DNA of 64,000 nt from a virus (taxonomy: Duplodnaviria > Caudoviricetes). Below are positions 1 to 35,266 of this stretch, piece after piece. A model generated the notes under the pieces. That model did not search any database. It saw only the letters and a list, made by a program, of their open reading frames with translations, and was not told the origin of the DNA. A program made the translations under genes and the position numbers. The DNA lies in the IMG/VR virus record IMGVR_UViG_3300031992_000021, positions 32,001 through 96,000 of that record; one strand, given 5' to 3'. Every line of letters starts with the position of its first letter. The first letter of the stretch is position 1.

Positions 1-818
1 TCTCCGTAGAATACGTCGTCCTTCAGCTTCTGGATATCGGCATCTGACATCCAGTTCGGCTCAACCCACTCGTAGTCCGCGAACCACTTCGCGATCCACT
101 GCCTTAGCCCGGACATCTTGGGCGCGTTGAGGGCCGATGAAAACTCGTCTATCGCATCCTGGACCGGATTCTTTCCGTCAGACCCAACGACAAAGCTGAC
201 GCCCTGCTCCCTCATGCGCCTCTTCACGGCTTTCGCCGCCATCGAGACAAGCCTCTCCTTGGATTTGCCTCCCATGTAGTATCCCAAGCCTCCGTTGCAC
301 GAGTGCTCTGCGACGACATTGACGGCCTCGGGGAATGTGGCGACGCTCCAGATCATTCCGGACTTGTGTTTTCTCACTGTACGGACCGTCACAGGATACT
401 TGGCAAGCCAGTCGACTTTAGGATTTTCCATCGACAGCATTTTCTCGCTTGTTCGAGGTATCGTGTCGTAGGTCCTCAGAGGATTGACATCGTATCCGTC
501 AATGGCGAGCAGCTTCGCGTCGACCTCCTCGCTCAGATCCGAACACTGGTTGCGAAGCCAGTTGCCGAGGATGTCGAACGGATAAACCATGGCTCCGTTG
601 TTGCCTGACCTTACACGTTCGATCGCTCTGTCTATAACGGACTTCATCTCGTCCTTGGAGAGAGACTTCGCAAACTCCTGCAGTTCCCTGATAGTTCCGG
701 GATAGCCATCCCGCAACTCCTTTCCCCTTGCGACTATCTCGTCTGCCGTTCTGGCGGCAAAGGCGCTGATACACATGGCTGACGACACGAGAGCCATTAT
801 GACTACCATCTTTTTCAT
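1..818 (-). CDS. Secreted hypothetical protein (partial, runs off the window start; absent from the ORF track)
   Basis: Manual translation from ATG at 818: MKKMVVIMALVSSAMCISAFAARTADEIVARGKELRDG..., open to position 1. Sec-type signal peptide ending in AFA. AAGGA SD and an extended -10 box at 852-860 lie upstream. Confidence 0.8.
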   Translation of the reverse strand, partial: MKKMVVIMALVSSAMCISAFAARTADEIVARGKELRDGYPGTIRELQEFAKSLSKDEMKSVIDRAIERVRSGNNGAMVYPFDILGNWLRNQCSDLSEEVDAKLLAIDGYDVNPLRTYDTIPRTSEKMLSMENPKVDWLAKYPVTVRTVRKHKSGMIWSVATFPEAVNVVAEHSCNGGLGYYMGGKSKERLVSMAAKAVKRRMREQGVSFVVGSDGKNPVQDAIDEFSSALNAPKMSGLRQWIAKWFADYEWVEPNWMSDADIQKLKDDVFYG

Positions 819-851
819 GATGTTCCTTTCCTTTGATTTTTCTGTCTCACC

Positions 852-860
852 ATTATACCA
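852..860 (-). promoter_or_regulatory. Extended -10 promoter (TGGTATAAT)
   Basis: Perfect TGnTATAAT on the minus strand in the intergenic gap upstream of the CDS starting at 818. Confidence 0.65.
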
Positions 861-865
861 TAAAA

Positions 866-1660
866 TCACTGCACAGCCCAATTCGGGAGTTCAGAGAACC
901 AGCGCACAGGAGCTATCGGGTGCCACAGGGTCTTCGTCGACCCATCCTCGTGCTCTGCATCGTTGTTCATGTTCCTCAGATAGCACCACATGAGGTCCTC
1001 GTTGTCCTCCCTGAGCCAGTCGCCTGGGTGTTTTACAATGCAGGATGAGTCGACGAGCACCACGACGTTCCTGAGCTCATACCCCCAGTCGATCGTGTTC
1101 CCTATCTTGGTATACGCACGGACGTCCCACGAGCTTCCGTATCCCGTTCCAACGTACATCTTCATCTTGTCCCAGTTGTTCCCGTCTTCGGACCCCTTGT
1201 CCGCCACTTCGCTCTGGGAGTAGAACTGGAGTCGGGTCTCCTCCGTGCCGGCGGAGTGCGAGAAGTTGTTCGTGGATGCCTTCAGCTCGAACCCCGCGAA
1301 ACTGGACGACATGGACCTCCAGTAGTTTGAATACCACGAGCTCGCCGTGTGTGCAGTAACGCATCGGTACGGAGAGCCATTGTACATCACGGCGTCTCCT
1401 CTGTAGTAGTACGTGCCGGTAGAGAACTCAGGATATCCCATCGGAGGTTCCCTGTTGACCGGTATGATGAACATGGCTATCCGCCTGACCGGCGCCCTGT
1501 CGTCAACCACCCTGTCTACGTAGTTGCTGACCGCCGAAACCTTGTTCGTCACGAACGTCTCGGTGGCCATCCTCGCCGTTGCCCCGATCGTCTGAAGCGG
1601 AAGCGCCGACATGGCTGAAACTGTAAATGCGCAAAGCGCAGCTGCCTTTGTTTTTTTCAT
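866..1660 (-). CDS. Exported protein with a CBM5/12-like carbohydrate-binding module
   Basis: Basic-hydrophobic N-terminus (MKKTKAAALCAFTVSAMSALP). FSTGTYYYRGDAVMYNGSPYRCVTAHT..W is a CBM5/12-type motif. ATGA overlap with the upstream gene. Confidence 0.65.
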   Translation of the reverse strand: MKKTKAAALCAFTVSAMSALPLQTIGATARMATETFVTNKVSAVSNYVDRVVDDRAPVRRIAMFIIPVNREPPMGYPEFSTGTYYYRGDAVMYNGSPYRCVTAHTASSWYSNYWRSMSSSFAGFELKASTNNFSHSAGTEETRLQFYSQSEVADKGSEDGNNWDKMKMYVGTGYGSSWDVRAYTKIGNTIDWGYELRNVVVLVDSSCIVKHPGDWLREDNEDLMWCYLRNMNNDAEHEDGSTKTLWHPIAPVRWFSELPNWAVQ

Positions 1661-2151
1661 CTTGTCACTCCGTTTTGTTCTACGGCTATGGTCTTTACCC
1701 CGTTGCCGTCCTCAACAGTTATCTTGTGGTACAGTCCGGTAGACTCGTCCTTTGCGTACGCGTCGTCCGAGGACACTCCAGAGATCCCGTTCTGGTCGAC
1801 CGCGATCGTCTTTATACCACCGGAATCCTCTATCGCAAGCTTGTAGAATAGTCCTGTCGAGGCTTCCCTGGCGTAGAGATCTTCAGGTATTCCGCCTCCG
1901 CCTCCTCCGCCGCCATCTCCTTTCATTGAAAGCGCTTCGTCGACCGTCGTTTCGGTGAAATGCGATGGATCCCACGCCCCTGAATGCACGACTGTGCATC
2001 TGTAGAGCGTGTCCCCGCGGTACACAAGGCGCCCTTCTGAATACGCTGCCGATTCGCTGAACGTCGGCGCAAGGGCCGACTTCTCGACCTTCTGCCCGAT
2101 CGCGCTCCGGAGCATTCCGAACGCCGCTATGACTTTCTGGTATAGTGTCAT
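1657..2151 (-). CDS. Small fibre-associated protein: CBM5/12-like module, poly-Gly linker and two copies of the shared C-terminal module
   Basis: FSESAAYSEGRLVYRGDTLYRCTVVHSGAWDPSHF, a G8 linker, then YAREASTGLFYKL...VDQNG and YAKDESTGLYHKI...VEQNG. Confidence 0.7.
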   Translation of the reverse strand: MTLYQKVIAAFGMLRSAIGQKVEKSALAPTFSESAAYSEGRLVYRGDTLYRCTVVHSGAWDPSHFTETTVDEALSMKGDGGGGGGGGIPEDLYAREASTGLFYKLAIEDSGGIKTIAVDQNGISGVSSDDAYAKDESTGLYHKITVEDGNGVKTIAVEQNGVTR

Positions 2152-2167
2152 GGCGCTTCGCCCCCGG

Positions 2168-2689
2168 TCACTCCTCCGCCGCCTTCAGTATGGCCGCAAC
2201 AGTTTCGTCGTCAACGCCAAGCGCATTCTTCGCAAGGCTTACCCATGAATTGAAAAGCTCGTTGTCAGCTGAAAGGTCCTGGGACAGCGAGAACGCCTCC
2301 CATGCGTTAAGTCCGTCGACCTCCTGCGTCTGAAGCCACTCCTTCAGCTGCTGCCACTTGCCTATCTTGGACAGGGCGACGTACAGCTTGAGCTTTGAAT
2401 ATCTTGGAGGCTTGACGAAACCGGTGGCGGAGAACAGCTTGTTCGTGACCGTCCATGACCTGCCGCTCTGGACGTACGTGCAGATCATCACGCCGTTAGT
2501 CACCGTCCTCGACTGGAGCCTGCGCTGCGACGATATCGCCTCAAGCCTCCTCACGGCAGCCTTTCCGATCGCCTTCTCAAGGGAGTTGGTCGATGAAGGC
2601 GATGCCGCAAGAGACGTCACGGCCGAGAATATCGCCAGAAAGGCGGTCGCCGCCACCGATATGAAAGATCTCGCTCTTGGTGTATTCAT
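2168..2689 (-). CDS. Exported hypothetical protein
   Basis: Signal peptide (...AATAFLAIFSAVTSLA-A), GGAG SD, compact helical C-terminal domain. Confidence 0.65.
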   Translation of the reverse strand: MNTPRARSFISVAATAFLAIFSAVTSLAASPSSTNSLEKAIGKAAVRRLEAISSQRRLQSRTVTNGVMICTYVQSGRSWTVTNKLFSATGFVKPPRYSKLKLYVALSKIGKWQQLKEWLQTQEVDGLNAWEAFSLSQDLSADNELFNSWVSLAKNALGVDDETVAAILKAAEE

Positions 2690-2706
2690 GGTATTCTCCT
2701 TTTGTC

Positions 2707-3573
2707 CTAGTTTTCGATGGGTACGAGCCCGAGAAACGCTCCGTTGTCGAACAGGGCGACCACACCGGTCTCGCTGTTTGTCACCGGTCCGGTGAAAGTC
2801 GGATATGTAGCGCCGCCATCCGTTACCGTAAGAAGGTAGCTTCCGAACGCAACACCGTCAGGGCCGCCCCATTTCCCGTGCGGATTGAGGTTGCAAGGTA
2901 TGTTCCTGAGCGCCTCAGGGCGCTTCACGTAGAGCTTGTGGCACGTGTAGTGGACGTCCGCGGAACTCGTCCTGTGCAGGACTATGTCGTATGTGTTCGT
3001 GAAGTGGTCGGTCGTGTTCTTCTTCGTCCAGCTTCCTGCAACGCGGTTTGTCGTGAATCCGGACTCCCATACGTACGGAACCGTCATCGTTGGAGAATTG
3101 GTGAAGCTCTGGCCGAAATAGATGTACAGCACGTCCTCGTTGGAGGCTGAATCGTAGCTGTTTGACGCGACATAGATGTCGAACCTCCTTGACGTAAGGG
3201 GAACCACGGGAAACTGAAGAGTCACGAACCTGCCTGTCTTCGGCACGTTCGAGAGCGAAGCCCTGAGCGACTCCACTCCGTTCGAGAATCCCTGCTGCCA
3301 GGCCTTTGCGACCCTTCCTATGTTCTTCGCCGTCTCCTCCTCCGCGGCCGCGTCGGCAATCGACGCAAGAACTCTGTTCTTGTCCCTCAGCTGCCCGTCT
3401 TCAGTCTCGGTTATGACGTTCTTCTGCCACGAGAAGTTCGTCACCACTCCGGACACCGACTCCGCCACGACAGACCTTTCAGCCCCAAGCCCCGTGCCAA
3501 GTCCCTCGCCAAGCTGCGCAGACGACGCAACTGCAACGAAGGCAGCCATTGATGCGATTGCGAACCTCATCAT
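2707..3573 (-). CDS. Exported hypothetical protein (paralogue of 4403..5179)
   Basis: Signal peptide MMRFAIASMAAFVAVASSA. DGQL...N.VLAS.AD.A motif and C-terminal ALFDNGAFLG. Confidence 0.7.
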   Translation of the reverse strand: MMRFAIASMAAFVAVASSAQLGEGLGTGLGAERSVVAESVSGVVTNFSWQKNVITETEDGQLRDKNRVLASIADAAAEEETAKNIGRVAKAWQQGFSNGVESLRASLSNVPKTGRFVTLQFPVVPLTSRRFDIYVASNSYDSASNEDVLYIYFGQSFTNSPTMTVPYVWESGFTTNRVAGSWTKKNTTDHFTNTYDIVLHRTSSADVHYTCHKLYVKRPEALRNIPCNLNPHGKWGGPDGVAFGSYLLTVTDGGATYPTFTGPVTNSETGVVALFDNGAFLGLVPIEN

Positions 3574-4406
3574 TCAGCCACCTCCACCTGAAGCCTGAGA
3601 CGCCACATCGACCGTCTGTCGACCATGAATCCTGGAATTATCATGACATGCTGACCGGCTTCTGCCTCTACAGTCATGACCGATTCCCAGTGCCCTCCCC
3701 TGAACATCCTCTCAAATATAACCTGTCCAGGACCCGTCAGAGCCTCAGCTTCCACGGTGTAGGTTATCGTGGCCTTGCTTGACGTCATGACGAGCGAGTC
3801 GAATGTGATTCCACCCTCTGTCTCTATGTATACCGGCGGAAGGTCGTCGCCGACATAAATCTGCTTGTGCTCCCAGGAGTTCGTCGGTCCGAACACGTAG
3901 TACACTGTGGTCGTGGCTCCGTTGATCGTCCACCCCGAATCCATCTCTACGCCAGAAGGGAGAGCTGCCGTGTTCGCGAAGTTTGTCCATGCGTTTCTGT
4001 TGTCCTCGCGCCACCATATCTTCTGCGCAAGCTCCGAAGGGGTAAACACGGCGTTCGTGACGGAGAATGCGTAGGCGGCTATGTTCGTGCCGTGTCCGAA
4101 GTCATCTATCAACGTATCCGGCACAAGATTCGTAACCGATCCGCCGTGGGCGTATTCGGCGGCGACAAGGCCAATCTCGGGGTCGTGCCCCGTCTTGGAC
4201 ATGATGTTCTTCGATCCTCCGTACATGACGGCCATGCAGACCGAAAGCGTCACGACGATCTTCCCTACGGCGCCAAGCTCCATGAATCTCCTGTGGATGT
4301 CGGACAGGGTCCCGGAGACCATAGGCCACAGGGCGATCGCCGCGCACATTGCCGAAAGAACGGCGGCCGCACAGACAAGTGCGTACATGGCGATTCCGTC
4401 TATCAT
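3570..4406 (-). CDS. Membrane-anchored protein (two N-terminal hydrophobic helices, then YGGSK) with an extracytoplasmic beta-rich domain
   Basis: Start moved from 4460 to ATG 4406, which overlaps the upstream stop (ATGA). Two hydrophobic segments. TN-rich C-terminal region. Confidence 0.65.
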   Translation of the reverse strand: MIDGIAMYALVCAAAVLSAMCAAIALWPMVSGTLSDIHRRFMELGAVGKIVVTLSVCMAVMYGGSKNIMSKTGHDPEIGLVAAEYAHGGSVTNLVPDTLIDDFGHGTNIAAYAFSVTNAVFTPSELAQKIWWREDNRNAWTNFANTAALPSGVEMDSGWTINGATTTVYYVFGPTNSWEHKQIYVGDDLPPVYIETEGGITFDSLVMTSSKATITYTVEAEALTGPGQVIFERMFRGGHWESVMTVEAEAGQHVMIIPGFMVDRRSMWRLRLQVEVAE

Positions 4407-5179
4407 TCCGCAACCCCCACAAGAAGCCCCTTCCTGAACGTAAGCGTCTTCCCTCCCCACGAAACGACGGTTGACACCCCGTCCTTAACTCCGTTCGGAA
4501 GGTCTATAGTCGCGCCGTCGGCTATCGCGGCGTCGTTCGGTATCTTCATGTATGTGAATCCGGAGTTCGCCCTCGGAAGCCACACGTCAACGTAGTACAG
4601 GTGCGAGTATTCGTTGCCGTCTTTGTCCTCATAGGTTCCGGACTCCGCAACCGGTGCGGACACGAAGTCCTCGGCAAGGAAATCCCATTCGCTCCTCGGA
4701 ACCCCGTCGATAACCTGCGCGTAACCGACAAGCGGCTGTACGGTCTGGATGTCTTCCGTGAAGGCGAACCTCATCCTCCACTTCCTCGATTCAACGCCTT
4801 GGATCGTTCCGTTCTCTCCTGTGTCCTTGATGTCTATGACCATGACCTTCGCCGTGGCTTCGTCGAACACGACGGCCGCGTCGAAGGACGACAGCTCTAC
4901 GGAATAGAACACTATCGGAGTGCCGGCGGCAACGTTCGTCGCCACCGCGGAAAGAAGATCGACAGCCTGGTTGAAGCCGTCCCTTGCCGCGTCCTGCTCA
5001 GCCATGGCGACCTGGTTAGACGCGGCCACCTTGGCAAGATCCGCCTGCGTGGCCACTGCGTTTGTGGAGTTGAGCTTTCCGTCGTCTCCTACCATCAGCT
5101 CACGCTGTGCAGGCGGAAGTTCTGCGAATGCCTCCGAAGCCAGAGCAAGAAACGCGAATACAGCAAGTACGGATTTCAC
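4403..5179 (-). CDS. Exported hypothetical protein (paralogue of 2707..3573)
   Basis: Signal peptide MKSVLAVFAFLALASEAFA. DGKL.STNAVATQADLA motif and C-terminal LTFRKGLLVG. Confidence 0.7.
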   Translation of the reverse strand: MKSVLAVFAFLALASEAFAELPPAQRELMVGDDGKLNSTNAVATQADLAKVAASNQVAMAEQDAARDGFNQAVDLLSAVATNVAAGTPIVFYSVELSSFDAAVVFDEATAKVMVIDIKDTGENGTIQGVESRKWRMRFAFTEDIQTVQPLVGYAQVIDGVPRSEWDFLAEDFVSAPVAESGTYEDKDGNEYSHLYYVDVWLPRANSGFTYMKIPNDAAIADGATIDLPNGVKDGVSTVVSWGGKTLTFRKGLLVGVAE

Positions 5180-5421
5180 TTCGCCCCTCCGTTTCCAAAG
5201 CGATTTGAACGCTTCACTCGGAACGGGGCGTTAGGAGGACCGTTGCGCTCGCTTTCCCTGCGCCTTCTGGCCGCCTCCATCCTGGCCTTGCGCTCTTCGC
5301 GCTCTACCCACAGGATCTGGACGCGGTTCGTGAGCTGAGTCCATGCATCGACAGTTGCGATCGGGACCGCATTTGTTGGATTTGCGGCTGCGAGAGCCAC
5401 CATGAAAAGCAGGTTAGTCAT
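5176..5421 (-). CDS. Small hypothetical protein with a short hydrophobic N-terminus and a basic C-terminus
   Basis: Overlaps both neighbours in the operon. MTNLLFMVALAAA N-terminus. Confidence 0.55.
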   Translation of the reverse strand: MTNLLFMVALAAANPTNAVPIATVDAWTQLTNRVQILWVEREERKARMEAARRRRESERNGPPNAPFRVKRSNRFGNGGAK

Positions 5422-7195
5422 TCTTGTGTTCCTCCAGGTAGTTCAGCACGGAGATGTTCTCCGGCAGAAGCGCGTTTACGTTCGTGACAGGTGTCCAGTA
5501 GAGGTAGCCGGCCTTCATTTCACGCCGATACAGGCACTCTTCCTGGGCGTCCCAGATGTAGCTTGAGGTGACGGACACGACAGATCTGACGGCGTTCGTC
5601 ATCGTATCCGGCGAGAGCGACTCGGATTTCTTGGCATAATCCATCGATATCGCCTCATCGAGGGTGTTCGTACCAATCCACACGTCGTGAAGACCGTTCG
5701 TCACTCCCAAGGTGATGGTCCCGTCGCCATGCGATCTCGTCTCGGGTCCGTTTACCGTGTTGAAACCTGCCGATATCACGACTGCACGGCTGTTCGTGTT
5801 CCACGCATACGTTCCGATCGATACGGAGTCTGTGACATTGGATGCGACATGTCCGCCAAGTGCGTATGTGCGGGTTCCAAATGCCTGCGATCCATAAATG
5901 CCGAAGATGCTCGTCGGACGCCGCCCCATGCCGAGCGCGACGGAACCCGGCCCTGCGTAGCTGTTGTATCCGATGGCCAATCCGTTCTCTTCGGCTTCGG
6001 CAAGCGTTCCGATGGCCGTTCCAAGATACGCCTTTGCCTTTGCTCCAGATCCTATGGCGATCGTGTTCGTCGCCTGCGCTTCCGCAAACGTTCCGATGCC
6101 TATCGAATTGAGATCCATTGCCTTCGCAGGGCCAAGTGCGAGAGCCTGAGGTCCTGTAGCCTCGGCGAAAGCGCCGAATGCGCTTGCATAGTTGTTGGAA
6201 GAGACGGCCTTGTATCCGACGGCAGACCCCCATGAGAAGAACGCCTGCGAGAACAGGCCGCCCGCGAACGCCTCGCTTGCAAGGGAGAGGTTGTTGAATC
6301 CGAGCGCTACCGCGTAGTCGGCCTTTGCCTCGGAAGTTCCGAACGCCATTGCGAAATCTCCGTTAGCTATGGCATATGGGCCTACAGCCATGGCATGTTC
6401 GCCTTCAACGGTGCTGTCATGTCCTACAAGAATGATTCCGTCGCTAGACTCGCTCCAGGTATTGTCTCTGCCTATTATGATATTGGAATTTGTCTGCCAC
6501 TCGTCGAAGTCTTCGATCAGGAGAAGCTTTGACAGATCAGGCTTGTCTGTAAGGTCGTAATACGCGCCAGATGTAGCCACTGCTGCGAACGACGGCTTAG
6601 ATCCTATCTCGGTCCACGTGTAGCTTGGCTTGGTCTGCGCCTTCGCCCACGGGTAGATCGTTGGATCGGATTCCGTGAACGAAGTGAGCCACGGAGGGTT
6701 GTATATCGCAGAAGGAGGTATTGCGTTCGTTGGGTATGGGAGCTTGTCCTGCTTCTTAGCAAGATGAGTGTATGCACCACCTGTCGTGAATTTAGTTGTT
6801 CCGCCCGATACAGGCGTAGCGCTGTCTCCGGTATTCGCAACGTTGCCAAGATCCACGTCAGACTTCCCGATCGTCACGGAGCCGGTCTTGCCGTTTACGC
6901 TTGTCACCGGAGCCGCAGGGACTCCGCTTATCGACGAGTATGGTATTGCGTTCGTCGGATACGGAAGTTTGTCCTGCTTTGCGCCAACCTTCTCGTCAGT
7001 CTCATCCTTGGTGTAGGTGTTATCCTCGATTGATTCTATTTTTCTCAGATTAGACGAGACCTCGTCCATTATCGAGTTGCTGACCGAAGTCACCTTCCGG
7101 TCGACATATTCCCTGGAGGCGGTGACGTTCACCGCTCCGTACGATTCGATTGCCGCGAACGCCAGAATCACAGCCGACATTCTGCAGAACCTCAT
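5414..7195 (-). CDS. Tail-fibre-like adhesin with a signal peptide and YadA-head-like repeats
   Basis: Signal peptide MRFCRMSAVILAFAAIESYG. Phage fibre motifs VTSVNGKTG.V...DVDLGNV.NT and ESDPT..WAK..KPSYT..EIG..FAAVATSG.Y.DL.DKP. Many ~14-aa A.A.G..A.A repeats. No autotransporter anchor. Confidence 0.75.
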   Translation of the reverse strand: MRFCRMSAVILAFAAIESYGAVNVTASREYVDRKVTSVSNSIMDEVSSNLRKIESIEDNTYTKDETDEKVGAKQDKLPYPTNAIPYSSISGVPAAPVTSVNGKTGSVTIGKSDVDLGNVANTGDSATPVSGGTTKFTTGGAYTHLAKKQDKLPYPTNAIPPSAIYNPPWLTSFTESDPTIYPWAKAQTKPSYTWTEIGSKPSFAAVATSGAYYDLTDKPDLSKLLLIEDFDEWQTNSNIIIGRDNTWSESSDGIILVGHDSTVEGEHAMAVGPYAIANGDFAMAFGTSEAKADYAVALGFNNLSLASEAFAGGLFSQAFFSWGSAVGYKAVSSNNYASAFGAFAEATGPQALALGPAKAMDLNSIGIGTFAEAQATNTIAIGSGAKAKAYLGTAIGTLAEAEENGLAIGYNSYAGPGSVALGMGRRPTSIFGIYGSQAFGTRTYALGGHVASNVTDSVSIGTYAWNTNSRAVVISAGFNTVNGPETRSHGDGTITLGVTNGLHDVWIGTNTLDEAISMDYAKKSESLSPDTMTNAVRSVVSVTSSYIWDAQEECLYRREMKAGYLYWTPVTNVNALLPENISVLNYLEEHKND

Positions 7196-8715
7196 TTCTC
7201 CACTCCTTCCTGATCAACTCCGATGTTTACCTCGCCAGTCTCCTCGTCGGTGACGGCAAGAATCCTGTAGAACTTGCCGTCTCCCTCGTTCGGGACGAAC
7301 ACTCCGGGAACGAACGGGACGACTCCGCCGTCGGCGAGTATCGCGTCGAGCGCCCTCTCGATCTCCATTACCTTCACATACGCAGGATCTGACACGCCGA
7401 AAACCGTGAACACTCGGCCTTCGGTTGCTGATTCTACAAACCTGTACGTGACGACCTGACCTGCCGGCGCGTAAAGGGTCACGTCTCCGCCGGCGTAGTC
7501 CTTGAGGCTCGCCGACGCAAGTACGACAGGAACATCTTCCTCGGAGGATATGTTCAGGACGACATAGAAGTCCCTCGCGTTTCCTGTTCCGACGGAAGCC
7601 GGAAGTCCGAGCCTGATCGTCTTGTTTTCCGAGATGGTAGCCGTGACGACGTTTACGGTCCTGTCCTTCAGGTTGAAGAGCATCACAGTGCTGTCGCCAG
7701 ATGCCGAAGAGAGGATGTTCTCGACCCTGTACCTGATGTTCGGCTTGTTCTTGATGAACGCAGGATCCTCCGGATCCTCCTCGTTCCAGTCCGGATGGGC
7801 CTGAATCGAAGCCGCTGCGACTATCTCGTCCAGGTCGGCCTCTCTCCAGTCTTCGGCATTCCACTCTGCTCCCTGTGAGACGGCAGAGGTGCAGATGTAC
7901 AACTTGCCGCCGCGGGAACACTTGTCGCCTGCGGCATATCCGCTTTCCGACGTGTCGTACGCCTTCAGGAGCGAACTTCCTGGAAGGTATCCTGAGTCGT
8001 TCTCGAACTCGCTCAGCTTGGTCGGAAGGTCGTCCTCCGTGATGAATCCGGAGTCGTTGGTAAGCTGGCTCGTCTTGGACGGAAGCGATCCGGCAAGCTG
8101 CGCTATCCTCGTGGCGATCGAAAGCTCCACCGAAGCGTTTGTAGAGAAGATCGCAGCCGGTCCTCTTCCTGCAGTTGTGCATATCTGTAGGACGACGTCT
8201 CCAGTCTCATCGTCCCTCTTCCTGGCAAGCATCCCGACCGTGTAGTACTTGCTTCCGCTGTATGCAGGGGCGAGGTTCAGGAGCGACGCAAGGCCCTCGT
8301 TCGAGTAGGCAGACAGCATCGCGAGGATGACGTTTGCGCCAGCTGCTGTGAGGACCAGATCCCACTTTGACGGATCGAACGAAGACGAAGACGTGTGGGC
8401 GGCCTTGCACCGGTAGCCGGCTCCACCATGCTTGCAGTAGCTTCCTACTGAATATGACGTAGAGGCAGACCACGCGGACGAGTTGAACGCAGCGATCGCG
8501 TAAACTCCGTTCACGGCGTCCCAGATCGATCCGGATGCCTCCTCGACGGCAGACTCTACATCCTCCTGCGTTATGAAATCGGATGGCTTCTTGCCGCTGT
8601 CGAGAAGTGCTCCGTTAGTGCCGAACAAGGCGATATTTCCAGAGACGGCGCCAGAGGGCACTGTTGCGGCACCCTCTACGTCGCTCAAATACGCTATGTT
8701 CTCCTTCTGGGCCAT
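7192..8715 (-). CDS. Tail fibre protein with 2-3 CBM5/12-like modules
   Basis: GNIALF...G.LLDSGKK..DF, PSKTSQLTNDSGF/PTKLSEFENDSGY and DWNE.DP.DPAFIKNKP fibre motifs. CBM-like W/Y..GY.C repeats. Shared C-terminal module. Confidence 0.75.
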   Translation of the reverse strand: MAQKENIAYLSDVEGAATVPSGAVSGNIALFGTNGALLDSGKKPSDFITQEDVESAVEEASGSIWDAVNGVYAIAAFNSSAWSASTSYSVGSYCKHGGAGYRCKAAHTSSSSFDPSKWDLVLTAAGANVILAMLSAYSNEGLASLLNLAPAYSGSKYYTVGMLARKRDDETGDVVLQICTTAGRGPAAIFSTNASVELSIATRIAQLAGSLPSKTSQLTNDSGFITEDDLPTKLSEFENDSGYLPGSSLLKAYDTSESGYAAGDKCSRGGKLYICTSAVSQGAEWNAEDWREADLDEIVAAASIQAHPDWNEEDPEDPAFIKNKPNIRYRVENILSSASGDSTVMLFNLKDRTVNVVTATISENKTIRLGLPASVGTGNARDFYVVLNISSEEDVPVVLASASLKDYAGGDVTLYAPAGQVVTYRFVESATEGRVFTVFGVSDPAYVKVMEIERALDAILADGGVVPFVPGVFVPNEGDGKFYRILAVTDEETGEVNIGVDQEGVEK

Positions 8716-8790: not shown

Positions 8791-9390
8791 CTAAAGAAGG
8801 CCTTCCTGCTGAATCGCAAGGTCTACCACTCCAGTCTTCTTGTCCGTCACGGCCACAATGCGGTGCCTGAGCCCGGTCTCCGAGTTTCTCGCGTACGGAT
8901 CGTGCGAGTTCTTAATGTCCGCCGGATTCTCCTCTCCGGCCGGCGTGAACTTCTCGGACGTTCCGTCGCGATAGGGTATGGAGTGCTGATCAGACGTAGG
9001 CATGTACTCGACAAGGAAGTTTCCGGACAGCTGCGTGTCGTATGAATACCTCATCCTGTCGCTTACGCGAAGGCTGAACATGTACGATCCGCGGCGAAGG
9101 GCCTTAGTCACCTCCCTTGGAATCTTCACATGGACTAGTCCTGCGTGGTGGTCGTCAGGGTACACTCCAGACATCCACTCCCCGGTCCATATGGGAGGCG
9201 AGAACTGGTTTTCAGAGAGGACGAACTCCACATGGCTGTTCTTTGGCGAAGCCGGACCGCAGTCTGCTGCGACAAGCCTCGCGTCGACAATCCACGTGTC
9301 TCCCGACACCACCTTGAGTACAGGCATCCTGTCCTCGCTTCGGAGAGGATTGACACCTGGCGGAACGGGCTTCATTCCCTTGACGAACAT
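8791..9390 (-). CDS. Baseplate/fibre adaptor protein (BppU-N-like) with the shared C-terminal module
   Basis: Start moved to ATG 9390 (AAGGAG SD). V.SGDT...G.V.V.IP...T..L..G.Y.F.L pattern. C-terminal YARNSETGLRHRI...IQQEG. Confidence 0.55.
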   Translation of the reverse strand: MFVKGMKPVPPGVNPLRSEDRMPVLKVVSGDTWIVDARLVAADCGPASPKNSHVEFVLSENQFSPPIWTGEWMSGVYPDDHHAGLVHVKIPREVTKALRRGSYMFSLRVSDRMRYSYDTQLSGNFLVEYMPTSDQHSIPYRDGTSEKFTPAGEENPADIKNSHDPYARNSETGLRHRIVAVTDKKTGVVDLAIQQEGLL

Positions 9391-9557
9391 CTCTCGGTCT
9401 CCTTCTTGGTCTTGAAAAGGAAGAACTTGCAGCTTTCGGCAATTCTTCCTGCGCATATCACCTGTGCGGTGACGGGGCAATACCTGCGACTGAAGTCATA
9501 ATCGGATATCCTTCCGCAGTTTCTGCATATCCTTGGCGGCTGTTTTTCATTCTGCAT
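9372..9557 (-). CDS. Small Cys-rich (putative Zn-binding) protein
   Basis: CxxC plus further Cys residues. AAGGA SD. Fills the gap between 9570 and 9390. Confidence 0.45.
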   Translation of the reverse strand: MQNEKQPPRICRNCGRISDYDFSRRYCPVTAQVICAGRIAESCKFFLFKTKKETERCSSRE

Positions 9558-31326: not shown

Positions 31327-32252
31327 TGCATGGTCTTTCTCGACAGGACGTAGCTCGTTATGAACGCAGTCAGCCTGTCGCCTAGCGACGACACGTTGCC
31401 CGCGAGAGTGTTCACCGAAGTCTGCAGGTCGTTTATCGTCTGGTTTATGAAGGCGGTTTCGGCGCATCCGCAGCATGGCTTTGCGCACTCGTCGGTCATC
31501 CTGATGATGCCGCTGTCGGTGGAGACCTGGATGCAGTCGTCGCCGTCTATGACGACTTCCTCCACCGCTATGCCGTTTATCGACCTTACGAACGACTGCT
31601 CCGACACCTTGCAGTCGCATTCGTCCGTGTATCCGGAGTTCGGATCCGCGCTGACGACGAGCGCGTTTTCGTCCGGCTTGTAGTCGAACCTGATGTTTTC
31701 GCCGGCCACGAGGCTGACATCTCCGGTGAGACGGAGCGAGACGTATCCCGACGAATCCACCGCACGAAGAGACCTCACACCCGAAAGAGACGGCCTGATG
31801 CATGTCGGCTCGATCATGGCCTCGTCAGGGGAGAAGCTGTACAGTCCGTCTGGAGTGCGCTCGAAGAACTCGTCGAGGTCCCCGAGGCACACCACGCCTC
31901 TTGCGTCCACGAACGAACCGGTTCCCGATACGTGGTAGGCGCCGTTCTTCTCGTGTCCGGCCGATGTCGCATAGACCGACATCACCCTGTCGCCGTTCCT
32001 GTCGCAGAACACGAGCGTGACGCTCCCGGAAACCACAGACATCTGTCCGAGGTACAGGAACGGATCCATGTTCGACCCGTCTACAGCCACGGACATGTCC
32101 ACCAGAAGGCAGTTCGGAAGCGTCCATCCGCCATCGACAACCGTGCCGGCGTAGTCGTTCGGCCTCAATCCGCAGCCCTCGTGGAACGGGTACTCGCGGA
32201 GCGAGTTCTCGTTCAGCCATCCAGTGGCTATTGGATTTGAAGATGCAGACAT
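31323..32252 (-). CDS. Baseplate-associated Cys-rich protein, NxxRxYP paralogue 1
   Basis: WLNENSLREYPF. VRSING. ECAKPCCGC followed by a coiled coil. Confidence 0.7.
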   Translation of the reverse strand: MSASSNPIATGWLNENSLREYPFHEGCGLRPNDYAGTVVDGGWTLPNCLLVDMSVAVDGSNMDPFLYLGQMSVVSGSVTLVFCDRNGDRVMSVYATSAGHEKNGAYHVSGTGSFVDARGVVCLGDLDEFFERTPDGLYSFSPDEAMIEPTCIRPSLSGVRSLRAVDSSGYVSLRLTGDVSLVAGENIRFDYKPDENALVVSADPNSGYTDECDCKVSEQSFVRSINGIAVEEVVIDGDDCIQVSTDSGIIRMTDECAKPCCGCAETAFINQTINDLQTSVNTLAGNVSSLGDRLTAFITSYVLSRKTMQ

Positions 32253-35200
32253 TACCTTACGACGCCTTCCTGGTCGACCTCGAGACTGGTCTGACCGTCA
32301 ACTGTGCTGGCAGTCACCTCGTGGTATAGTCCGGTATCCTTGTCTCTCGCATAGAGGTCTGACGGAATCCTCGGAACCGCACCATAGTCGTCGAGAGACA
32401 CGAGAGACCACGAAAGGTTGATAAACCCTATCCCATGCGTGTAAGGCTCCTCATCCTCGGCCTGCATGACGGCTCTCGATATGCGAACCCCGACAAGGTA
32501 TCCGGGCCTCAGCTCCGGTGATATCTCCTGGACGGCGAAATCTGCCGCCGAAGGCAGGCTCTTTCCGAGCACCTTGGCTATCACGTCGTCCTTATCGACG
32601 AGGCTCTTGTCGTCCGTAGTTATGAACACCGGGTCGAAGCCGTTGTACTCTATTCCTCCGTCGGCAGGATGCCCGAACGGGATGAGAACCGTGCGTTCGC
32701 TGTCCGGCTTGAGAAGCGACGTCTTGAGGTTCCTGTACATCATGCCCTCGCCCGCGGAGAAGTCCGGAAGTATGTTGTAGGCGAACTTGATGCACGCGGA
32801 GCGCTTCGACTGTCCTGTGAATCCAGTCTCTCCGAACACGGAAGCAGACACCATGAGCGCGTACTTTCCGTCCGGAAGGTTCGTCGGGACGCGCATCGTG
32901 GCCGTGAATGCGGACGGCGATGCGATCGTGCTGCCGGAGTATCCTCTGAGCCTGATGTACGGAAACATTCCGATCTTCGCCTGCTCGGAGTTCTCGAGCG
33001 CGATGTCCGTGAACTGGTTCCTGTAGGCTCCGTTGTCGAGCGCGATGACAACCGTACCCTGTCCGTCAGGGCAGCCGGCTCTCGATATGACGCTCACGCC
33101 GGCGCCGCCGACAATCCTCTCGACGACTGGGCCGGCTATCAGCACTCCGTCACGGGTGCGCTTGGGCACGTTGAAGCCAGGCGCACCGCCGTTCTCAAGC
33201 CTGAAGTCGAACTCGGCGGCCAGCTCAAGGTCTCCGGTATTTGCGTCGCCGTCAGTTCCGTATCCGTACACCTTCAGAGGAGATCCGGCACGGACCTGGA
33301 GCGACGTCACAGGGCCTGTCGCACCCTGGAATCCGCGAACCCAGTGCATGACCTGCGTCTTGTCGTATGCGGGATCGATCTTGGCGCCCCTCCTGACAAA
33401 GCCCTCCGGCCACGGCTTCTTGCCTCTTTCGGAAGAAAACCAGTGTATGGTGTCCCTGCAGAACGAAACGGTCGGGCTGTCCTTGAGGATGGCCTTGTTG
33501 TCCATCTCTACGCCGTTCACGATGAGCGCGGCGGATTTCGGAGGAACCGGCGGCCAGTAGTTGGCGATCTTCGGATCCATTCCGATCACGTAGTCAAACA
33601 GCGACTCCGGCTCGTAGTCGGTGACGACTCCGGAAACAACCGTTCCCGATCCGACAGACACGCTTCCTTCGCTGTGCTGATGCACGAGCAGGTTGAGGCG
33701 TCCGTCTTCCCTTGCGCTTTTCCACACATAGGAAGAGATGTCTTCGACGATCGGTCCGTCGCTGAGAACCCTCCCGTTTCCGTCGTGCACGACAGACTTT
33801 ATGCCTGTCGCTCCTTTTACCGTGAAATCGCTTCCTTCGACGATTTCAGGATCGGACGTTATGATCGTTCCGTCTACCGAAACCCTTTCGGTGTCGTCGT
33901 ATCCGATGACGAGCAGCTTCGCCGAATTTCCGGAGTTGCTTTCATGTACGGCGAACGAAACGACATCGTCGTTCGGATTGTCCTTTGAAAGAGCCTCAAC
34001 GAGGAACAGGACCGAGTCTGCAAGGCATGTGCCTATTGCAACCGGGGTATTCTCTCCTGAGTACGCGGATGTGTCAGCCGTAAATTCATACGTCTTGCCG
34101 CCGAACGAGAACTCGTCTCCGTCTGAAATCGACGCTATGGAACAGATCTGAAGCACATCGGGGAACACGACCTTCACAGAGGTGCGTATGGAATCGAACC
34201 TGCCTCTGATGGATACCGTCACGCCGCTGCCGTCTCCGGCAATTCCTCTTGCCTCGTGGTCAAGCCATCCCCTGCCGGCCTCTGGAAACACGAGGTCCTC
34301 CCAGGTCCTCTGGTTTGCCGACAGATTGGAGTATGCGTTTGACGGGCCCGAAGCCGGCAGAGAGAGCCTTGCGGTGAGCCCGTTTGAAATCTTGACCTCC
34401 TCGTCAGGAGCGTGGATCTGCACCTTGAAGCTTTCCGACTCCTTGCCGTTCTCCCTCCAGCGAAGGACGACACCTGTAGGCCAGTCTGCGGAACTCTGGT
34501 CTAGGTAGAAGGAATATGAAACTTCCTTGTCTGAAGTCCATGTTCCGCCGAACCTAAGCGCCAGAGGGCCTACCTGCGCGTCTGAGAAAGTCTCGTCTAT
34601 CGGCAGATAGCCGGCTGTCGACTTTGTGCCTGCCGGGCGTGCGGTCAGCACCGCGGTCCTGTGGATGTGGGACGTGCCGATGTCGAGGAACTGAGGTGAC
34701 ACGATCGCCATTCCGTCGAATCCTCCAGAAACGACACCTCCCGATATCGTGCAGACGTAGATGAGCGGACCGTTCGGGTCTGCCGTCAGCCTTCCGGCCT
34801 CGTTTGCGGAAAGATAGTACCTTCCAGGACGGTACTTCTCTCCGGATTCCAGCATGTTCGACACCATGAACGGCGAACCGCCCGGATTGAGGTTCAGGCT
34901 TCCGTACACGATCACATTGCCGGTACTTCCGCTCTTGGACTGAAGAATCCCCACCGTAAATGCAGAATCGGCGGCCTTGAAGTCGTCGTACAGGCTCATC
35001 GTTGCCTTGGCCGCGGCAAACCTCTGGGTCTCGCTGTCGAGATAGACCACGTTGCCGACATCGGGTTCCTTGCCGGTGTCAGTCGACAGATTGACTCCGG
35101 TAAGAATGACAGACGACATCTTTCCGCTCGCCAGAAGCTCCTTCAGCCTTGCGTACAGGTACGAAGTCCTGTCGCCAAGCTGTCCTATTGGCACGTTGAG

Positions 35201-35266
35201 CGTGTCTGCGTCAAGACTGTCCCCGTTCGAGAACTTCTTAAGCTGCGACCACATCTCCTTAGACAT
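32252..35266 (-). CDS. Large baseplate/proximal tail-fibre protein with the shared C-terminal module
   Basis: NGD..DA..LN.PI.QL..RT.YL fibre-attachment N-terminus. PG.YYLS...AG.LT..P. Ends YARDKDTGLYHEV...VDQEGVVR. Confidence 0.7.
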   Translation of the reverse strand: MSKEMWSQLKKFSNGDSLDADTLNVPIGQLGDRTSYLYARLKELLASGKMSSVILTGVNLSTDTGKEPDVGNVVYLDSETQRFAAAKATMSLYDDFKAADSAFTVGILQSKSGSTGNVIVYGSLNLNPGGSPFMVSNMLESGEKYRPGRYYLSANEAGRLTADPNGPLIYVCTISGGVVSGGFDGMAIVSPQFLDIGTSHIHRTAVLTARPAGTKSTAGYLPIDETFSDAQVGPLALRFGGTWTSDKEVSYSFYLDQSSADWPTGVVLRWRENGKESESFKVQIHAPDEEVKISNGLTARLSLPASGPSNAYSNLSANQRTWEDLVFPEAGRGWLDHEARGIAGDGSGVTVSIRGRFDSIRTSVKVVFPDVLQICSIASISDGDEFSFGGKTYEFTADTSAYSGENTPVAIGTCLADSVLFLVEALSKDNPNDDVVSFAVHESNSGNSAKLLVIGYDDTERVSVDGTIITSDPEIVEGSDFTVKGATGIKSVVHDGNGRVLSDGPIVEDISSYVWKSAREDGRLNLLVHQHSEGSVSVGSGTVVSGVVTDYEPESLFDYVIGMDPKIANYWPPVPPKSAALIVNGVEMDNKAILKDSPTVSFCRDTIHWFSSERGKKPWPEGFVRRGAKIDPAYDKTQVMHWVRGFQGATGPVTSLQVRAGSPLKVYGYGTDGDANTGDLELAAEFDFRLENGGAPGFNVPKRTRDGVLIAGPVVERIVGGAGVSVISRAGCPDGQGTVVIALDNGAYRNQFTDIALENSEQAKIGMFPYIRLRGYSGSTIASPSAFTATMRVPTNLPDGKYALMVSASVFGETGFTGQSKRSACIKFAYNILPDFSAGEGMMYRNLKTSLLKPDSERTVLIPFGHPADGGIEYNGFDPVFITTDDKSLVDKDDVIAKVLGKSLPSAADFAVQEISPELRPGYLVGVRISRAVMQAEDEEPYTHGIGFINLSWSLVSLDDYGAVPRIPSDLYARDKDTGLYHEVTASTVDGQTSLEVDQEGVVR

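Follow-up and report, generated by a model that had tools for sequence, protein, structure and literature searches.

In Bacteroidota, the general O-glycosylation system recognizes the motif D-(S/T)-(A/I/L/V/M/T), acts only on proteins that have passed the inner membrane and covers a large share of the secretome. Among structural elements, ST-turns, Asx-turns and helix N-cap motifs use Ser, Thr, Asp and Asn, which are nearly interchangeable in them, and such elements are present in all proteins. Here, we describe a threonine-asparagine (Thr-Asn, TN) dipeptide that is over-represented in seven exported proteins of an uncultured rumen phage (Caudoviricetes; IMG/VR record IMGVR_UViG_3300031992_000021), encoded within positions 866-7195 of the window, i.e., the 64,000-nucleotide stretch that covers bases 32001-96000 of a 163-kb genome lying on a single 162,950-bp contig. 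Coordinates refer to the window unless stated otherwise. In its extended form, T-N-x-hydrophobic, this dipeptide is a short linear motif under purifying selection in a small and specific set of exported proteins, made up of the products of the seven-gene cassette that follows the tail-fibre genes in phages of this family, together with some secreted proteins from the bacterial clade that probably hosts them. The literature that was searched contained nothing relevant on a TN sequon or on exported tail-fibre cassettes.

The phage genome has 56% GC, carries most of its genes on the minus strand and encodes, among others, a tail sheath and an RNA-polymerase (RNAP) beta-like protein. The block under study consists of eight tightly packed, partly overlapping minus-strand open reading frames (ORFs), immediately downstream of a gene for a fibre protein bearing a CBM_5_12 module (7192-8715). 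Seven of them encode exported proteins and form the counted set of 1,935 amino acids (aa), the eighth (1657-2151) having no export signal. With one control protein from just downstream, the features are as follows:

5414..7195, minus strand: 593-aa exported fibre-like protein that combines a signal peptide with repeats of the tail-fibre and of the YadA-head-like type; 9 TN, 3.1 expected.
5176..5421, minus strand: 81-aa protein whose N-terminus is hydrophobic; 3 TN, 0.5 expected; QLTNR in 5/5 orthologs.
4403..5179, minus strand: 258-aa signal-peptide protein; 2 TN, 0.6 expected; NSTNAV unchanged in 5/5 orthologs.
3570..4406, minus strand: 278-aa membrane-anchored protein with two N-terminal helices, a YGGSK motif and two beta-sandwich domains; 5 TN, 0.8 expected, all within the first ectodomain.
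2707..3573, minus strand: 288-aa signal-peptide protein with 23 homologs; 5 TN, 1.7 expected.
2168..2689, minus strand: 173-aa signal-peptide protein; 3 TN, 0.6 expected; VTNGV and TTNxL in 5/5 orthologs.
1657..2151, minus strand: 164-aa protein without export signal, used as an internal control; 0 TN, also 0 in both orthologs, 1.0 expected overall.
866..1660, minus strand: 264-aa signal-peptide protein with a CBM_5_12 module (Pfam, 5e-6); 2 TN, 1.1 expected, the weakest of the seven.
3..881, minus strand: control signal-peptide protein, the first of four without TN excess, the other three lying before the start of the window.

Export was called heuristically, from a positive n-region, a hydrophobic h-region and small residues at -3/-1, or from a membrane anchor. 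All seven proteins carry a Sec-type N-terminus or an anchor, and this character is preserved in the orthologs despite sequence divergence. A hydrophobicity scan found signal-peptide-like N-termini in six of the seven, that of the 81-aa protein being weak (no K/R in the n-region), and the seventh protein (3570-4406) has a two-helix membrane hairpin; its start was set at 4406 because orthologs fix that position. No family was assigned by Pfam or PHROGs to five of the seven proteins. The 593-aa protein matched Pfam YadA_head (PF05658, 2.6e-15) and PHROG minor tail / tail fibre families. Phages in databases gave only domain-level matches to the cassette proteins, no close relatives of the 278-aa protein were found in viral_contigs, and no usable matches were obtained from the ESM Atlas.

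An exact recount gave 29 TN dipeptides in the 1,935 aa (2+3+5+5+2+3+9, from 866-1660 through 5414-7195), in agreement with the approximate figures of the original prediction, which had been made by a model from the sequence of the window. Its control comparison with TN-poor proteins also stands, with, for example, 2 in the sheath, 1 in the RNAP beta-like protein and 2 in a 914-aa protein. Correction for T and N frequency, which it had named as a refuting test, left the enrichment in place. The expectation obtained from 5,000 composition-preserving shuffles within each protein was 8.4 ± 2.7, and none of the shuffles attained 29 (ratio ~3.5, z 7.5, Poisson 2e-8). TN enrichment is confirmed and is stronger than had been stated. 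TN ranks first among the 400 dipeptides, the second being RR with a z of only 3.5. Thr is followed by Asn in 18.8% of cases in the seven proteins versus 3.0% in the remaining 163-kb genome (Fisher 1.6e-13), where 67 TN were counted for 74.9 expected. The commonest residue after Thr is Asn (29/154) and the commonest before Asn is Thr (29/105). SN, which had also been said to be frequent, lost its excess once composition was corrected for (13 versus 9.0 expected, z 1.5), and NT, NS, TD and SD were likewise not enriched in the seven proteins; therefore, the signal is specific to Thr then Asn. The signal extends beyond the dipeptide, a hydrophobic residue being present at +2 in 20/29 sites. This is illustrated by T-N-x-[VILA], found 20 times for 2.6 expected (z 11). 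Val is frequent at -1, with 9 V-T-N for 0.7 expected.

Starting from relatives of the 278-aa protein, syntenic cassettes were located on four metagenomic contigs (L001, L002, L003 and L005), in which gene order and gene sizes are alike. TN was again in excess in these cassettes, with 32 versus 8.9 expected in L001, 21 versus 6.1 in L002, 34 versus 11.1 in L003 and 17 versus 3.3 in L005, i.e., ratios of 3.1-5.2, whereas the remaining genes of these loci were at expectation. In ortholog alignments of the seven families, TN was the best-conserved dipeptide, being retained in 82% of cases versus 45% for other dipeptides (permutation p 5e-5). Thr was conserved at 87% inside TN versus 56% elsewhere, and Asn at 85% versus 58%. 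The residues flanking TN vary in orthologs while T-N stays constant. The observed/expected ratio across orthologs was at least 2.0 in every one of the seven families. In the 278-aa family, three sites (T92N93, T107N108 and T175N176) show no change across 10 sequences with identities as low as 32%, and in the 288-aa family two sites (T45N46 and T265N266) are invariant in 23 sequences; the TN sites of the 593-aa protein are retained in its L001 and L003 orthologs. A profile search of 1.84 billion representatives extended the 278-aa family to 66 members, of which 54 contain 196 TN for 46.5 expected, again the top dipeptide, the z value being inflated by shared descent. About six alignment columns contain ~147/201 TN of this family, S for T and Asp for Asn occur at some of these recurrent columns, and there are lineages with TN at positions where the query has none. 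No homology among the seven families was detected by BLAST all-against-all or by hhalign (probability below 10%), which excludes hidden paralogy.

Within the block, the TN excess follows the export signal and not the position in the genome. Indeed, the signal-less 164-aa protein lies inside the cassette and has no TN in three genomes, and the signal-less 507-aa fibre family encoded upstream has 6 TN for 3.4 expected.

A more distant cassette was found on a 12-kb contig (L007) of the rumen metagenome-assembled genome (MAG) RUG10619 and is also present in 4/30 of its GTDB relatives, again with TN excess. RUG10619 amounts to 6.1 Mb and is classified only as 'Bacteria'; a published tree places it in a clade sister to Planctomycetes (PMC6785717, supplementary files 5 and 7). 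Its 16S gene was absent from the assembly as searched, and the count of DUF1559 was uninformative on the phylum. The original prediction had guessed a host among Kiritimatiellota/Verrucomicrobiota. A cassette in a clade sister to Planctomycetes is compatible with this guess and does not prove it, and binning could err. In a 1.56-Mb sample of RUG10619 (G001), with our own gene calls and a heuristic signal test, TN was distributed as follows:

Signal-bearing proteins (n=199): 474 TN versus 378 expected, ratio 1.25; 5 proteins at Poisson p < 0.01.
Other proteins (n=550): 373 TN versus 395 expected, ratio 0.94; 0 proteins at Poisson p < 0.01.
Outlier, secreted Peptidase_C10 protein: 19 TN versus 5.4 expected, T-N-x-hydrophobic at 14/19 sites.
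Outlier, 8,777-aa surface protein adjoining the C10 protein: 82 TN versus 44.7 expected.
Outlier, CotH protein: 9 TN versus 3.3 expected.
Outlier, 350-aa protein: 5 TN versus 0.7 expected.

Fourteen homologs of the C10 protein (34-100% identity) contain 12-24 TN each for 4-7 expected. In this family, too, no dipeptide is better conserved than TN (68% versus 41%, p 5e-5), several sites being invariant. When the proteins of the first 800 kb sampled, the C10 protein included, were searched with profile hidden Markov models of the seven cassette families, none proved to be a relative. The genes for the two TN-rich giants, the C10 peptidase and the 8,777-aa protein, stand in an operon-like row of secreted giants on G001 contig C3 (23856-62899; L041, L070, L071), which encodes the peptidase (1,257 aa), a further protein of 2,742 aa, a lipoprotein of 169 aa and the 8,777-aa protein, in which TSP3, LamG and DUF2141 modules are present.

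The recurrence of TN in unrelated exported proteins of the phage and of the host clade needs a shared cause, tied either to location or to joint function, and something in the cell envelope probably reads the motif. Among the proteins examined, the motif is missing from most of the exported ones and from all of the cytoplasmic ones. Because the proteins are non-homologous, the specificity is for T then N, and the excess tracks export, we read TN as the site of one shared envelope partner. Recognition of T-N-x-hydrophobic by such a partner, for which a covalent modification of selected proteins is the foremost single candidate, is tentatively placed first among the explanations, short of an even chance; it is followed by an intrinsic structural, Ca2+-binding or assembly motif and then, well behind, by a non-covalent handling or sorting signal. 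The specificity for T-N, the variety of contexts, the sharing between phage and host and the replacement of T by S at some sites all speak for the shared partner. That the reader acts in trans, that it is encoded by the host and that the outcome is covalent are three things that we infer. Under this explanation, a host enzyme would covalently modify Thr or Asn of selected surface proteins, and TN would be a sequon of glycosylation type that is selective and not secretome-wide. In the most specific form, which we consider rather unlikely, T-N-x-hydrophobic would be the acceptor motif of an undescribed, selective envelope modification system in a poorly known rumen clade. Such a system would decorate a few large surface proteins, and the exported fibre-like proteins of phages would use the same system. 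The interpretation given in the original prediction thus finds partial support, since an enrichment that survives composition correction, is strongly conserved and is specific to T-N fits recognition of the motif by some factor. Glycosylation as the motive of the phage for exporting these proteins, as had been proposed, is speculation.

Several observations weigh against this recognition by a modifying partner. The four further signal-bearing phage proteins encoded just downstream of the cassette have 1 TN for 1.4 expected, and their relatives in L003 are likewise without TN excess; export by itself does not bring the excess with it. TN as a general feature of signal-bearing proteins was excluded within the phage and in the 1.56 Mb of G001. 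The comparison of signal-bearing with other proteins in the candidate-host proteome, which the original prediction had proposed, gave ratios of 1.25 versus 0.94; the former ratio fell to ~1.1 once the four outliers were removed, and T-N-x-hydrophobic was at expectation after removal of three outliers. The lack of SN enrichment, the other signal-bearing phage proteins and the MAG secretome all weaken a general (T/S)N form, and TN is not a general (T/S)N sequon of the secretome. The excess is concentrated mostly in a few strongly conserved columns per family, as fold-critical or interface residues would give, and Asp or Gln replaces Asn at some TN sites. One TN of the 81-aa protein is at residue 2, within the signal peptide itself. 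No match to STT3/PglB (PF02516) was found in G001, G005, G007, G008 and G017, which are incomplete MAGs with an indirect link to the host, the controls having responded. PMT-family matches were obtained in 3/5 host-clade genomes and are non-specific, since E. coli responds too. No multi-span GT-C-like enzyme was found in the phage, and we know of no bacterial sequon to which TN corresponds. Finally, the assignment of the host is based on metagenomic binning.

An intrinsic structural or assembly element without any modification, i.e., capping of a strand or helix, Ca2+ binding, or contacts between co-evolving cassette proteins, is a serious competitor that we nevertheless hold to be unlikely. 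In this case, the Thr hydroxyl and the Asn amide would together cap the start of a strand or helix, and the cassette proteins would form one envelope structure. TN sites are the most conserved positions, several of them invariant over the range of identities given above, the hydrophobic residue at +2 is what would be seen where a buried element begins, and S-for-T and D-for-N replacements occur. Overlaps between the cassette genes suggest that their translation is coupled, and synteny is kept in all relatives, as would be the case for genes encoding subunits of one complex. The AlphaFold2 (AF2) model of the 278-aa protein (predicted local distance difference test, pLDDT, 81) comprises two N-terminal helices, a beta-rich domain with all five TN and a C-terminal FN3-like domain (Z 7.8); Foldseek and VIA-align returned generic Ig/FN3 folds only. 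The model of the 288-aa protein was poor (pLDDT 49.5) and was not used. The model puts sites at loop/strand boundaries, in line with a structural role. Taken one by one, the five TN share no single structural context: one is predicted where a helix ends, one where a strand ends, one in a short bridge and two in loops, of which one is two residues ahead of a strand and the other follows a strand. Such varied contexts suit a linear motif. Across the seven unrelated families, the motif stands in helical, coil and strand contexts, and it is also present in an unrelated host protease family. Generic capping predicts enrichment of SN, TD and SD, which is not observed, and NT is not in excess either; generic polar capping therefore fails to account for TN and was ruled out. 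The beta-rich cytoplasmic fibre proteins of the phage and ~97% of the signal-bearing proteins of the MAG are without excess, which also argues against a purely structural origin.

Considerably less probable is a non-covalent role, in which the motif would be a signal for handling or sorting that a chaperone, surface-localisation machinery or a host or phage protease reads in the course of Sec export or afterwards. It would agree with a linear motif that is confined to exported proteins and common to the phage and the host clade, and the phage does encode an exported lipoprotein with a caspase domain. Several sites per protein inside folded domains would be unusual for a sorting signal, however, and no candidate machinery was found. 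C14 enzymes are known to cleave after Arg/Lys or Asp, not after Asn. The lipoprotein in question (genome 121152-122084, minus strand; L062:653-1585) matches Peptidase_C14 (2.3e-13) and is not of the legumain type; therefore, it finds no support as an Asn-specific enzyme and was rejected as such. No connection between this protein and the TN motif was found.

An artefact of composition, internal repeats or hidden shared ancestry is very improbable: T and N are somewhat commoner in the seven proteins, and DKLPYPTNAIP is present twice in the 593-aa protein, one of its TN adjoining TTN in a homologous mycobacteriophage minor tail protein, but the per-protein shuffles, which preserve composition and rule out a composition artefact, keep the excess, dropping one DKLPYPTNAIP copy only lowers 29 to 28, all seven families hold their ratio across orthologs, and profile-profile comparison shows no similarity among them. 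The least credible alternative, a signal in the DNA in which ACGAAC (GTTCGT on the plus strand) would be a binding, methylation or restriction-related site that incidentally codes for Thr-Asn, could draw on the density of this hexamer (2.8 per kb in 866-7195 versus 0.25 per kb elsewhere in the window, ~eleven-fold) and on its use for 18/29 TN where codon usage predicts about 40%, but frame 0 accounts for all 18 copies, frames 1 and 2 having none and the opposite strand 2, 11/29 TN use other codons, and codons vary synonymously among orthologs, with T-N retained, at 22/29 sites. A DNA-level motif was ruled out by this reading frame and synonymous variation, and selection acts on the protein, not on the DNA.

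Among the features of these seven unrelated exported proteins, a two-residue motif stands out as the strongest, both statistically and in its conservation. Its recurrence in secreted proteins that come from the likely host clade and are unrelated to those of the phage points to an undescribed envelope process in a bacterial group on which there is hardly any experimental work. If TN is a modification site, it would be a new sequon and would explain the routing of phage fibre-like proteins through the export and decoration pathway of the host. Should its role instead lie in assembly or structure, the motif would be a simple marker, readable from sequence, by which the components of a new class of envelope structures could be found in metagenomes. 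Either way, the motif is cheap to search for.

Other features of the phage were noted around the cassette. The control protein at 3-881 and the proteins encoded at genome 29307-31871 (L064) comprise three ~290-aa signal-peptide paralogs with 33-38% mutual identity and a 256-aa signal-peptide protein; none of the four has a Pfam family or a TN excess, and related copies come after the cassette in L003 too. In related contigs, a complete sigma-70 family gene (r2, r3, r4) is found soon after the exported cassette (L002 8936-10447, L003 11493-13028). The sole strong TN outlier of the phage outside the cassette is a 146-aa lipoprotein-like protein without Pfam family (MKTMIVVACAFMLSGC...; genome 155502-155942, minus strand; L063:203-643), with 3 TN for 0.1 expected. 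In the 288-aa protein (2707-3573), the signal peptide ends with A-x-A-Q at residues 17-20 in 23/23 homologs, A-Q being invariant, which would place Gln first in the mature protein. This end is reminiscent of the pyroglutamate 'Q-rule' of Bacteroidota signal-peptidase substrates. A C-terminal module of ~30-50 aa (type ...YHKITVEDGNGVKTIAVEQNGV...) is common to otherwise unrelated fibre or baseplate proteins, all encoded on the minus strand; BLAST ties 1657-2151 to the C-termini of 32252-35266 and 8791-9480, and the end of 7192-8715 is similar by eye.

The motif can finally be compared with described systems. Like the O-glycosylation motif of Bacteroidota, it is a short linear motif of exported proteins in which a hydroxyl residue stands near a hydrophobic one. 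Its sequence differs, and it is found in few families only; D-(S/T)-(A/I/L/V/M/T) itself occurs at expectation in the seven proteins (7 versus 6.5, z 0.2), and the TN sites do not fit it. With the sequons of PglB and of cytoplasmic N-glycosyltransferases, TN shares a central Asn and its occurrence in exported or surface proteins. Unlike in these systems, D/E-x-N-x-S/T is absent from the seven proteins (0 versus 1.6 expected), N-x-S/T is if anything depleted (10 versus 16.7 expected), and PF02516 is unmatched in the five genomes. As in ST-turns, Asx-turns and N-caps, a Ser/Thr and Asn/Asp pair precedes a secondary-structure element and S-for-T and D-for-N exchanges are seen at some sites, whereas the enrichment concerns T-N only and is limited to particular exported families. 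As for the cassette itself, the nearest parallel is with the prophage Eib/YadA-like adhesins of lambdoid phages. Among deposited phages, the best match of the 593-aa protein is EibE (30% identity over 223 aa), and no YadA beta-barrel membrane anchor is present among its Pfam matches at E up to 0.1. Like these adhesins, the protein combines a signal peptide with YadA-head repeats, and its gene directly follows tail-fibre genes; unlike them, it has tail-fibre repeats as well and stands first in a conserved exported cassette of seven genes.

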